Made by a program: the position numbers | IMG/VR virus record: IMGVR_UViG_2721755711_000006 | DNA from: a virus | Lineage: Duplodnaviria; Heunggongvirae; Uroviricota; Caudoviricetes | Length of the DNA stretch: 49,241 bases | Reading direction: 5' to 3' (one strand) | Part shown: piece by piece, positions 39,001 through 42,000 of the stretch | Layout: each line of letters opens with the position of its first letter | How positions within the stretch are numbered: position 1 is the stretch's first letter

Positions 39001-42000
39001 GCCAAAAAGCTGAAACCAGAATGAAGGAGGTAAAGCATGACTGGTAAACGTAATCCGCCAACCATTACACATGATGAAATGGCTGATAAATGGATGGAGG
39101 ATCCAGCTTTTAAAGCAGAATACGACGCCATCGCCGACGAATTTGCGTTGCTTGATGAAATGCTGGCAGCACGTAAAGAAGCTGGTTTAACCCAGGCTGA
39201 GATCGCTGAGCGTATGGGAACCAAAGCAACTGTCATCAGCAGAATGGAAAGTAATCTGGCGTCAGGTGTCAGTGGACCATCATTTTCCACACTGAAAAAA
39301 TTTGCCCGCGCAACAGGAAAAAAACTCCAGATCCGCTTCGTGTAAGTTTCCACCATTACGCCGTCACTCTGGCGGCGCTTCACACTCCACAAAATCACGA
39401 CGAAACAACCACAACGGACTGAAGCATTCATGCGAATAACCATCACGCAGGTAAATGACCCGCTGTGTTTCAGACTCCCAGCGTATAACGTGGACGCGAC
39501 GCCCTCTGCCATCGCGGAACCAGCGATTGAGTACTTGCATGTGTTACCTGTGAGCATAATTACACCTGCCAGCCCAGCGCCTGAAACAGGCCCATTTTCG
39601 GGTGATACCAGCGAGTACCTCGTGGTTCTGCTTCACTCATCATGCGATGAAAAGCAAACATGAAGGGTTCTACTGCAACAATCGCGCGACGAGACAATAA
39701 TCCGTCCGGCGTCATAAATTCATGGGTGTCGGTAGGGATCTGATATGCGTTCACCAGATTGCGGCATTTCGCATCTGACATACCTGTTTTCGCCACCAGC
39801 TGACGGTATCCTGCATAACCATCGCGTATGGTGCCTCTTTTGATTTGTTCGACAGTTTCGGCAACGTGGCTAACTTTTTCTTCCATCTTGTCGAGGCGTT
39901 TTTGCTGACGAACTGCTTCAAGAGCCATCGCGGCAACCATTTCGATTTCGCTCATTGATTTGCGCACCTGCTCTTCCAGTTCGCGCCAACGATCTACCAG
40001 GCGGGCAGTGAATTCCGGGCAAAGTTGTGCGACGACAATGATGCTGTCGCGTTTGCCTTGTTCGCCTTCGAAAATATATGCGTTTGTGAATTTGTTTTGG
40101 CTAAATGATTGTTCGTTCTCAACTTTTTGCATTGCAGGAAGTTGAATCACCCCGCGTTTTGCCAGACGCTCTATTGATATTCTGACATTGCCGTGTTGAC
40201 TTCCAACCAGCTCTGCGATTTCAACGCTGGTCATGGATACTTTGTCGTTAAAAATTGCGGTGTTCATCATTCAATCTCCTCAGGATGTTTCTCAAACCAG
40301 GCGTCAAGGGCGCGCTCGCTGGCCTCTCCTTCTTCAGGAGAAAGCTGCTCAATACTTATAAAACGGATGGATAAAACCGAAGGATTGGCGTTACGTATTG
40401 CCATCGCACCATTCACAGCTGCGGAACAGGGGCATTTGGCCTTTCCGATAATTGTCTCGGTATAAGTGCGGGCGTACTCTGAAACCACGTACGTTCTTCT
40501 GTACCACTGTTCGACCGGAATTTGTCCAACAGGATCTGAAGGGTTGACTAATTTTTGAGTGCTGCTAATGTTAAGCATGATCAATGTCCTTTAGTCAGAT
40601 GATTGAGGCCTTTTCCAGTCTGGTGATTAATGCCCTCCGGTTGGCGGTCAGGATCAGTGATTAATCGGGCGTTTATCATGGAACAGCTCCTTGAAGGTTG
40701 ATTCCAAAGGTAAGTCAGGACAGGCCGGGCTGGCCCACCTTAATCCGGCCCGGCTTTTTCTTTTCCTTTCGCTCAGTAACATTTGTCTGACCAAGTGCCC
40801 ATTGCCGCGCACGAAACAAGCAATCATTAAACATCGCTCCTTTGCGGCTGGCCTGCGAGCTACGGCGGTAGTAATCCAGTCCCCGGCATGCCCCCCCCTG
40901 GCAACAATTTCAGGGAAGCCCTCCGCCACCAGCTTTTCCGTTATGTGTTTGCAGATAAATTCTTCTGGAGTCATGGTTAGCCTCTTCAATTTGCCTGTCT
41001 TTTAACCACTTCAGGCTCGGTGGTATACTGGAGTTCTCACACAACCAGTAAGGAAATTACCTATGACTGATACAACTAAATTCAGCGTTGAAACCAAGCT
41101 AGACGGCCTTGAGGCATTACTTGGTTTATTGCTGTCGTCCCTTCCCATCCAAGAGCGAATAAAGCTCGCAGCATCCGGAATGGAGTTAATTAAAAACCTG
41201 AAAAGTCAGCCGCAACAGCAGAGGGAGCGAGGACAGGATATGTGTGAATACATCGCTGCCGTTCTGGATAACTCCATCAACCAGGATTAACCGAAAAACC
41301 CAAAGCTAAGGCTGTTTTTTCAGCAACAGTCCTTGCCTCCTGAATCTCTTCGTCGGTAAGGGCTGATATGGCCTCAAGAATGCATTCGATTCGTTCTTCG
41401 TTCATACTTCCTTACCTCCCCTCCCCCGTGTGCGCTAAGCTTGGATTTGATGTTTTGCGTAACGAATCAGGAATTCCATCTTCAGGGTGAGGGTAAAGAT
41501 CTGGCCTTAAGCCATGAGGCGTAACCTTCCATGCAACCACCTCACATACCCGTAAAACGAAACGAGCAGGAATTGTGCTTTTTGAAAACCACTGATTCAC
41601 CGCTTGCGGTGTCACACCAAGATTTCGCGCTATGGCATTTTGCGCAATTAATGCACGAAGTTCGTCGTAATCATTTCCTTTCATAACAAATCACCAAGAT
41701 AAACTTAATGAATCAAGAATACATCAAGTTTAAATTAACATGCAAGTTGCAAAAGGATCGAATACACTAAAATCAAGTAAAGATTTACCCTTGTAAAGAA
41801 ACCCACGGGACCTGGTCATGAAGAACGTCAAAAACACAGAAAATAGAATAGCCGCAATGCTGAAAGCAAAAGGATGGACTCAGGCTCAGCTGGCCCGTAA
41901 GCTGGGGGTGAGTGCGCAATCAGTGCAGTACTGGACCACAGGAAAAACATTTCCACGGAGCGATAAGCTTGCGCAGTTATCAGAGATTAGCGGTTATCCA

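Follow-up and report, generated by a model that had tools for sequence, protein, structure and literature searches.

Gene Arrangement Downstream of cro

The window is a 49,241-nucleotide stretch of viral DNA from the Caudoviricetes (IMG/VR record IMGVR_UViG_2721755711_000006). Its early-right operon is encoded on the minus strand and opens with a cro-like gene of the YdaS/Cro family (41412-41684), whose product matches Pfam YdaS_toxin (1.2e-12), Pfam P22_Cro (1e-4), and PHROG 35. The CI-like repressor (41818-42507, plus strand) harbors Pfam HTH_3 and Peptidase_S24 domains and is annotated by PGAP as an XRE family regulator. On the same strand as the repressor gene lies an ORF of 75 codons, referred to here as the cargo ORF, which extends from the ATG at 41063 to the TAA at 41288-41290. 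It is flanked by minus-strand genes on both sides, with cro and a 42-codon ORF on one side and an early-right gene for a 106-aa protein (40654-40974) on the other. The latter is annotated by PGAP, begins 18 nt past the left edge of the cassette described below, and matches phrog_4439 over the N-terminal 28 residues of its product. PGAP also annotates a type II toxin-antitoxin insertion in the surrounding operon.

The cargo ORF is preceded by an extended -10 element of the sigma-70 type, TGGTATACT (TG at 41021-41022 and TATACT at 41024-41029), and by a -35-like TTAACC (41002-41007) at a spacing of 16 nt. The leader, GGAGTTCTCACACAACCAGTAAGGAA (41030-41062), is conserved to approximately 41056 and includes the Shine-Dalgarno sequence AAGGA (41050-41054), 8 nt 5′ of the ATG. 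The original prediction described a plus-strand ORF with an extended -10 and a good ribosome-binding site, convergent with cro-side transcription, and all of these elements are present. It also described a minus-strand ORF of about 40 codons whose stop was left open. This ORF (41405-41277) starts at the ATG complementary to 41403-41405, uses a GGAGG within the last codons of cro (complement of 41415-41419), and can now be assigned a stop at the complement of 41277-41279, for a total of 42 codons. The cargo ORF and the 42-codon ORF are on opposite strands and overlap tail to tail by 14 nt. In the prophage of E. coli EC11, which is 99.8% identical, PGAP already annotates both ORFs as hypothetical proteins.

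The 42-codon ORF is intact in all sister prophages, with loss of the stop in one of them extending it to 71 aa. Its coding signal is weak, with a pN/pS of 0.33-0.41 and variable sites distributed 9/5/11 over the three codon positions. The product has only five close clusters, and no helix-turn-helix motif, Pfam match, or similarity to CII was detected in it. Its similarity to YmfJ is not significant (E 0.07).

A Portable Promoter-Leader Cassette

The original prediction viewed the plus-strand ORF as an independently promoted small gene. The gene is real and conserved, and a promoter is present by sequence. The promoter and leader are, however, more than local features, a point that the original prediction did not cover. 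Comparison of the copies indicates that they form a portable, near-invariant cassette that is associated with many unrelated cargo genes. The cassette comprises the 64 nt from 40993 to 41056, its left half containing an inverted repeat, GCCTG/CAGGC (40993-40997 and 41012-41016), with a 14-nt loop. These 64 nt are 95-100% conserved over 79 unique copies, and the flanks are unrelated on both sides; thus, the conservation exceeds what is expected by chance. Conservation ends at about 41056, directly before the start codon. In 125 of 129 copies, 47-51 nt separate the start of the core motif from the ATG of the downstream ORF; in 2 further copies, the distance is 61 nt.

The cassette is widely distributed. 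Matches are found in approximately 947 of 5,426 complete E. coli genomes, in more than 120 viral contigs, and in 141 phage records from Salmonella, Escherichia, Klebsiella, Shigella, and Cronobacter. The ORFs that follow it belong to at least 14 families that are mutually unrelated by BLASTP, and a tail-to-tail ORF overlap of 4-179 nt is the rule across them. Nine of the other cargo families were compared with Pfam, PHROG, NCBIfam, and PADLOC, yielding nothing except weak zinc-ribbon matches. Among the 95 copies that can be classified by position, 86 are on the repressor side and 9 are on the cro side. All nine cro-side cassettes carry the 75-aa cargo, and the cro-side position is specific to this lineage.

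The Inverted Repeat and Its Possible Roles

Read as minus-strand RNA, the inverted repeat corresponds to the hairpin GCCUG-AAGUGGUUAAAAGA-CAGGC, the loop region of which holds the -35-like TTAACC on the plus strand. The repeat is invariant in 142 copies, and three independent compensatory variants of the arms occur (GCCTT/AAGGC, GCCGGG/CCCGGC, and GTGCCG/CGGCAC); the arms were compared directly, MAFFT having placed the variant arms into different columns. The loop ranges from 11 to 17 nt among copies. With 5 bp, the hairpin is thermodynamically weak and does not differ from shuffled sequences on either strand (z ~0), so the case for it rests on the covariation and on published RNA ends. In the e14 element of E. 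coli K-12, a strong minus-strand 3′ end, originating from either termination or processing, maps 2 nt past the hairpin at U00096.3 position 1201423 (Term-seq, PMC7815308). The P22 sas RNA, as published (PMC13397905), starts at the sieB ATG and covers the leader, and the hairpin is found close to its 3′ end. Taken together, the sequence variants and these ends indicate that the cassette encodes, on the minus strand, a hairpin that marks the end of an RNA and whose pairing has been kept through compensatory changes.

A protein operator would be another possible source of symmetric changes in the two arms. In that case, the repeat would act at the DNA level, binding a host-encoded or widely shared phage regulator of the cassette promoter. 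The repeat flanks the -35 region, co-evolution with a dimeric regulator is likewise expected to alter both arms, and the hairpin shows no excess folding stability over shuffled sequences. However, the distance between the arms varies (17-20 nt from GCC to GGC, with loops of 11-17 nt), which fits poorly with a fixed dimer, and RNA 3′ ends occur in vivo at the hairpin base in e14, and P22 sas carries the hairpin in its 3′ portion. An operator is thus an unlikely explanation of the repeat. LexA control was considered and rejected, as no CTGT-N8-ACAG is seen in the block. The consensus sequences of CRP, FNR, DnaA, IHF, and MqsA, compared by eye with the block, do not fit it either. Of note, ymfI, the cargo gene of the e14 cassette, is listed in one review only as a carrier of a “potential SOS box”, and it is not part of the SOS-type YmfT iModulon, although its neighbors are, which speaks for a regulation of its own.

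Predicted Transcription from the Cassette

A scan of positions 40500-41900 returned a single promoter-like site, TTAACC-16-nt-TG-n-TATACT at 41002-41029. By itself, this match is not beyond chance, since shuffled sequences would give 1.9 sites over the 1.4 kb in which one was found. The TG and the -10, the latter as TATRCT, are retained in all type-A copies of the cassette. The cargo transcript is predicted to start near 41036. No terminator was found by the scan to separate the cargo ORF from the 42-codon ORF; the only candidate is a weak structure after the cargo stop (-6.3 kcal/mol, z -0.8). With Rfam, searched permissively over 40400-41900, matches were at chance level only. The prophage small RNAs AgvB and AsxR and the Pas sRNAs were considered as identities and rejected, as they map elsewhere, to a late-region site downstream of pR′.

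A transcript of this orientation might serve a purpose similar to that of pRE, which in lambda serves repressor establishment: starting downstream of cro and directed at the repressor gene, it would run antisense through cro into cI so as to lower Cro and supply repressor, with the ORF as a translated leader or co-product. The cassette promoter and cI share a strand at a distance of 790 nt, no terminator-like site is predicted between them on either strand, and this geometry is common to all nine cro-side cassettes. The other 86 copies, however, point away from the repressor gene and are antisense to it; therefore, read-through into a regulator gene is not a general property of the cassette. 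In e14, the homologous ymfI mRNA ends approximately 70-170 nt beyond its stop codon, in part through Rho (PMC7815308), and its 3′ ends and a Rho-dependent termination region lie inside the antisense ymfJ (Term-seq, PMC7815308). In the window, the 530 nt of untranslated antisense-cro RNA would be similarly open to Rho. The extended -10 gives the promoter a constitutive appearance, unlike pRE, and no cII-like activator is evident, the ORF that follows cro being devoid of a helix-turn-helix or Pfam match as described above. A pRE-like role is consequently quite improbable.

The Cargo Protein

The cargo ORF occurs in five DNA variants, each intact with exactly 75 codons. In this shallow set, 36 sites vary, of which 6, 10, and 20 are first, second, and third codon positions, respectively; pN/pS is 0.25-0.38. 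By these sequence measures, the ORF is a real protein-coding gene under purifying selection. Close relatives of the protein are limited to 5 clusters among 5.8 billion proteins, while remote homologues of 74-88 aa with 32-61% identity were retrieved among 1.84 billion representatives; these keep both the length and the helical pattern. Conservation in related prophages, the absence of which would have spoken against the original prediction, is thus evident from the intact variants as well as from the remote homologues. One of the latter (L151), 50% identical to the 75-aa protein, is located in a canonical repressor-side cassette.

The AlphaFold2 model (pLDDT 76) has helices at residues 9-26, 29-48, and 51-74, and the protein is predicted to be a soluble three-helix bundle. 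It has a pI of 4.8 and a GRAVY of -0.32; its hydropathy over 19 residues does not exceed 1.1, and it lacks a transmembrane segment. Searches of Pfam, PHROG, NCBIfam, and PADLOC gave no match, nor did tblastn against 50,697 phage records, and Foldseek comparison of the model with the PDB and viral models returned nothing with an E below 2. BLASTP against rac10 and against the cargo of the sister prophage in strain A36 produced no alignment. On these comparisons, the protein is a member of an orphan family. A relationship to SieB was ruled out on the same searches: because there are no family or tblastn matches, the cargo is not a sieB gene, and the cassette alone is held in common. By analogy with SieB, the 75-aa protein may have a prophage-expressed function directed against other phages or the host.

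It has also been considered that the functional product is RNA, namely, an antisense transcript of the oop kind that is directed at the 42-codon ORF and cro and in which the 75-codon ORF is incidental. The mutual unrelatedness of the cargo families might mean that their sequence is unimportant. Such a role is very unlikely in light of the constant ORF length, the third-position bias, and the low pN/pS, as well as the length and helical pattern retained at 32-61% identity. Furthermore, the Shine-Dalgarno sequence and the distance at which the ATG follows the core motif are conserved over all cargo families, and neither an oop-like intrinsic terminator nor an Rfam match was found. Least probable is a pair resembling type I toxin-antitoxin systems, in which a toxic small protein is checked by a hairpin-ended antisense RNA: a stable antisense RNA does cover the leader and ribosome-binding site of the small ORF in homologous modules, and the surrounding operon carries the type II insertion, but the protein is acidic, soluble, and devoid of a hydrophobic segment, unlike type I toxins, has no PADLOC or Pfam toxin match, and is encoded in a setting in which, the cargo coding regions being unrelated, no dedicated antisense promoter is conserved.

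A Model for Mutually Exclusive Expression

The explanation that we favor, with somewhat better than even confidence, is that of a lysogen-expressed accessory gene in a sieB-type cassette, whose transcription is convergent and mutually exclusive with that of the early-right operon. The 64-nt module would supply a sigma-70 promoter of the extended -10 type, a constant leader that carries the ribosome-binding site, and, on the opposite strand, a hairpin for an RNA 3′ end. In the lysogen, with pR repressed, the cassette promoter would fire and the 75-aa protein would be made. The cargo mRNA, having no intrinsic terminator, would read antisense into the 42-codon ORF toward cro, and this read-through could help to hold down leaky early-right expression.

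Upon induction, strong transcription from pR would cross the cassette and interfere with the small promoter. The pR transcript would, in addition, yield a hairpin-stabilized antisense segment. By homology, the sas-like segment of the early-right transcript is predicted at 40991-41062 on the minus strand, its 3′ end expected from e14 at approximately 40991, 2 nt past the hairpin. Its sequence is the complement of the leader and ribosome-binding site of the cargo, and it would switch the cargo off, in parallel to the action of sas on sieB. Of the regulatory effects that the arrangement could have, mutual interference of the convergent transcripts is the most plausible. Since the minus strand of the cassette additionally specifies a hairpin associated with an RNA 3′ end, regulation is probably exerted mainly by the early operon on the small gene, as by sas on sieB, beside the reverse direction, in which cargo-strand transcription may affect early-right expression.

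A broader reading, which we advance tentatively and consider somewhat less probable than its contrary, is that the 64-nt unit, shared by lambdoid phages of enterobacteria, is a docking site for at least 14 unrelated families of small genes, nearly all of them orphans, next to the sieB of lambda and P22, which has the left half of the unit in common. Each cargo would be expressed in lysogens and shut off in the lytic phase by an antisense RNA of the sas type that is cut or terminated at the hairpin. The cro-side copy would, in addition, damp leaky cro. If it is true, the cargo proteins would be largely unexplored prophage effectors in exclusion, anti-host-defense, or host control, and an element long known just from the sieB of P22 and lambda would be a general expression-and-control cassette. 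Being findable by a simple sequence search, the cassette would flag small hypothetical or unannotated prophage genes that are likely made in lysogens, leading to new exclusion or host-modulating proteins. It would also be a compact natural case of a DNA segment used on both strands, as a promoter in one direction and as a hairpin for RNA ends in the other. In the window prophage, it would imply a small protein in the lysogenic state together with a convergent-transcription brake adjoining cro. If just the ordinary part holds, the locus adds one further hypothetical prophage accessory gene.

Relationship to Known Systems

The closest parallel is the sieB/sas module of lambda and P22. Positions 40992-41024 of the window form a 33-nt block, TGCCTGTCTTTTAACCACnTCAGGCTCGGTGG, that has 97%-identical counterparts in lambda, P22, HK620, and many other phages. 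The first three have it 5′ of sieB, and in the window, it lies directly 5′ of the cargo gene. Both sieB and the window gene run opposite to an early operon and converge with the early gene that precedes them, and the hairpin of P22 sas is in the 3′ part of an antisense RNA that spans the leader and start codon. There are several differences between the two modules. The cargo is a 75-aa soluble protein, predicted to form three helices, in place of the 192-aa SieB. To the right of the block, the window has TATACT and a 27-nt leader; the corresponding stretch in lambda and P22 is TTCTCGTGTACCCC, with a leader of ~70 nt. The window cassette follows cro in the early-right operon, while sieB follows N (gene 24 in P22) in the early-left operon; as the repressor gene is on the cargo strand, the cassette is on the cro side and thus outside the early-left location of sieB/sas. 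An Esc-like internal product is not evident here.

Ranade and Poteete reportedly described sieB in 1993 as a superinfection-exclusion gene with its own promoter within the pL operon and under antisense control by sas. Since lambda and P22 are without TATACT to the right of the block, the sieB promoter as mapped may occupy another position than the promoter proposed here. The left block of the cassette falls within the published P22 sas antisense RNA (PMC13397905).

The ymfI cassette of e14 shares its type-A promoter, leader, and hairpin with that of the window, and the two are 91% identical over 67 nt. As here, ymfI overlaps tail to tail with the upstream early gene. In contrast, its cargo YmfI (113 aa) is unrelated to the 75-aa protein, the cassette is on the repressor side, between ymfJ and xis/int, and its left flank is a structured region with a strong terminator, where the window has an adjacent gene start. 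In K-12, the homologous pairs ymfI-ymfJ and sieB-ydaF have been listed as convergent excludons, with overlapping transcripts of the neighboring genes, in a published RNA-seq analysis (PMC12288877).

The oop/cII system of lambda likewise employs a promoter downstream of cro that is directed against pR, with a product that overlaps the 3′ end of the small ORF following cro. The oop transcript is 77 nt long, does not code for protein, and has an intrinsic terminator. In contrast, the predicted transcript of the window encodes a conserved protein, and no terminator was found for it. There is also no sequence similarity between the two loci and no Rfam match, and the 42-codon ORF is unlike CII.

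Finally, classical morons have their own promoter and terminator and vary from site to site. In the present case, one near-invariant promoter-leader-hairpin unit, for which no terminator was found, is reused by at least 14 unrelated genes. What the window locus shares with morons such as STMMW_20121 of ST64B, a prophage accessory locus antisense to lytic genes (PMC7067206), is the organization as an autonomous, lysogen-type unit set against the flow of the lytic operon.

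Locus anatomy

The locus just after cro, antisense within the early-right operon, is concluded to be, in all probability short of certainty, a sieB-type accessory cassette with new cargo. The window shares 99.8% identity with a lambdoid prophage in E. coli EC11. The surrounding region comprises a CI-like repressor gene with HTH and Peptidase_S24 domains (41818-42507, +), a cro/YdaS-like gene (41684-41412, −), a 42-codon ORF (41405-41277, −), a 75-codon ORF (41063-41290, +), and a 106-aa ORF (40974-40654, −), to the left of which the minus strand carries a 105-aa ORF, Rha, DUF4222, replication genes, and Q. 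The original prediction placed an independently promoted small gene here, and all elements that it named are in place: an extended −10 (TG-n-TATACT, 41021-41029), a good ribosome-binding site for the 75-codon ORF (AAGGA, 8 nt 5′ of the ATG), and a GGAGG within the final cro codons, which serves the short minus-strand ORF. Its interpretation, that convergent transcription could modulate early-right expression, is correct in part only. The stop of the 42-codon ORF, which it left open, is the complement of 41277-41279, which gives the two ORFs a 14-nt tail-to-tail overlap. The 42-codon ORF is open in all sister prophages and annotated by PGAP, with a coding signal weaker than that of the 75-codon ORF. 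A consensus scan of 40500-41900 gives a single promoter match (TTAACC, 16 nt, TATACT, with TG), a yield (1 per 1.4 kb) not above that of shuffled sequence, and no terminator-like site on either strand.

A shared cassette with many cargoes

A BLAST search with 40975-41411 shows the promoter and leader to be the only widespread part. Matches occur in 947 of the 5,426 complete E. coli genomes; examples are the ymfH-ymfI interval of the K-12 prophage e14 and the region preceding rac10 in Rac-like prophages. Scanning for exact matches to the core GGCTCGGTGGTATNCTGGAGTTCTCAC recovers >120 viral contigs. Over 79 unique copies, the stretch 40993 to ~41056 is 95-100% conserved, and conservation collapses at both flanks. 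In 125 of 129 copies, an ORF begins with an ATG at a fixed distance of 47-51 nt from the start of the core motif. These cargo ORFs (55-148 aa) form 14 families mutually unconnected by BLASTP, nearly all without a Pfam or PADLOC match. Typically, the convergent early gene that precedes the cargo gene shares 4-179 nt with it at its 3′ end. This reuse of one cassette for many orphan small genes is most worth following up.

A second version, with the left half retained but another leader, occurs in strains ST540 and A36. In the CPS-53-like prophage of ST540, it precedes an unannotated ORF of ~80 codons (MTFDEKELDNAINK...) in a stretch (L005 2555-2820) left empty by PGAP; thus, cassette searches can uncover unannotated small genes.

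A probable opposite-strand hairpin and RNA ends in e14

The block harbors an inverted repeat (GCCTG, 14 nt, CAGGC). Rare variants alter both arms jointly (GCCTT/AAGGC, GCCGGG/CCCGGC, GTGCCG/CGGCAC). The loop varies from 11 to 17 nt across copies, which is easier to reconcile with a hairpin in nucleic acid than with an operator of constant spacing. The stem is weak, with a stability indistinguishable from that of shuffled sequences. A protein operator instead of a hairpin is unlikely.

K-12 Term-seq reports a strong minus-strand 3′ end at 1201423 (109,099 and 285,136 reads in two conditions) with a low intrinsic-terminator score and no Rho-dependent call (PMC7815308). Registering three listed ends on the e14 locus (L004) places it 2 nt past the 3′ arm of the hairpin. 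The ymfI strand has 3′ ends ~70 nt downstream of the ymfI stop codon and, ~100 nt beyond these, a Rho-dependent region; both are antisense to ymfJ (PMC7815308). Both ymfI-ymfJ and sieB-ydaF are among the convergent excludons listed in an RNA-seq study (PMC12288877). ymfI is absent from the iModulon holding its e14 neighbours.

Between the repressor gene ymfK and ymfJ (L004 3272-3327), a terminator-like hairpin directly precedes a near-consensus minus-strand promoter (TTGACA, 16 nt, CATAAT), resembling the tIMM-then-pL order annotated in the HK620 record. If this promoter is pL-like, ymfJ would be the first early-left gene of e14, and the promoter would be a candidate source of the minus-strand RNA ending at the cassette hairpin. 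Annotated ymfH (L004 2149-2460) contains a strong same-strand intrinsic terminator (GGCGGTACCAG...CTGGTACCGCC, then a T-run) and two Term-seq 3′ ends (1201257 and 1201195), and is probably a structured untranslated region, not a protein gene.

The cro-side position

When the cassette copies are sorted by which strand carries the nearest repressor gene, 86 fall on the repressor side, 9 fall on the cro side, and 36 are unclassifiable. All nine cro-side copies carry the 75-aa cargo, and a 50% identical homologue (L151) follows a canonical repressor-side cassette. These distributions indicate that the cro-side position is a derived feature of this cargo lineage. The module follows three different cro/repressor pairs. 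A pRE-like role is conceivable, since the promoter faces cI with no terminator predicted between, but improbable: most copies have the reverse geometry, and in e14 Rho-dependent ends occur early.

The short motif CCGTGTGCGCTAAGC at the cro 3′ end (41427-41441) is where homology starts between sister prophages whose cro genes differ. In e14- and Rac-type contexts (L004 2436-2460; L006 2298-2322), a similar motif, CGCGTGCGC(T/A)nAGCCGCATTCAC, is located 40-90 nt leftward of the cassette. Such motifs may be recombination linkers or RNA elements.

The 75-aa cargo protein

In sister prophages, all five DNA variants of the ORF retain 75 codons. The 36 variable sites fall 6/10/20 by codon position, and in-frame pN/pS is 0.25-0.38. 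In one of the antisense frames pN/pS is similar (0.20-0.23), which its shared wobble positions would lead one to expect, but this frame is interrupted by stop codons. By these substitution patterns, the ORF is a gene; this coding evidence contradicts an RNA-only, oop-like role, which is very unlikely.

The family is tiny: close relatives form five clusters (84-96% identity), all from E. coli, among 5.8 billion proteins, and 50,697 phage records contain no match. Four more homologues (74-88 aa, 32-61% identity), recovered by an exhaustive profile search, retain the pattern. AlphaFold2 predicts three helices (pLDDT 76); Foldseek finds no match to the model in the PDB or viral models, nor does the protein match Pfam, PHROG, NCBIfam, or PADLOC. 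It is computed to be acidic and soluble, which contradicts a type I toxin, a role that merits hardly any credence.

Other features of the prophage

A toxin of the RelE/ParE (Gp49) type and a helix-turn-helix antitoxin (38718-39345, +) are also inserted antisense in the early-right operon, overlapping an "ash family" ORF. Sister prophages carry a TumE/HVO_A0114 pair or a ProQ-like gene at this position, which looks like a second swappable antisense slot. An OmpC-like porin gene (~32692-33795; 15447-16550 in the equivalent locus L146) adjoins the Q antiterminator gene on the opposite strand and is likely a lysogenic-conversion gene. Gene order is unusual: int/xis with DUF4222 and DUF5406 genes lie past the tail-fibre genes, beside mlrA, and a tail-fibre-assembly fragment lies past the early-left genes, beside potB. 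The EC11 annotation marks many structural genes as frameshifted. The prophage may be a rearranged or composite element, or its assembly may be faulty.

Proposed mechanism and relation to sieB

The anatomy, ORF coding status, homology, and transcript ends in e14 and P22 are established; the mode of operation proposed below is inferred. The cassette promoter would fire in the lysogen, giving the 75-aa protein, with the unterminated cargo transcript running antisense into the 42-codon ORF and towards cro. Upon induction, pR transcription would override the cassette promoter and produce an antisense RNA that covers the cargo leader and ends at the hairpin.

Lambda, P22, HK620, and many other phages of the P22-like and lambda-like kinds match the left 33 nt of the cassette at 97% identity. 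In them, the block sits in the ral-sieB interval, upstream of sieB; sieB itself runs antisense to the pL operon and converges with N (gene 24 in P22). In 1993, Ranade and Poteete reportedly mapped a sieB promoter in P22, identified its lambda counterpart by homology, and described sas as an antisense RNA that blocks SieB translation. The P22 sas sequence spans P22 nt 11387-11513 on the minus strand, starting at the sieB start codon, with GCCUGACGUGGUUAAAAGACAGGC near its 3′ end (2026 small-RNA study, PMC13397905). This GCCUGACGUGGUUAAAAGACAGGC is the inverted repeat of the cassette block.
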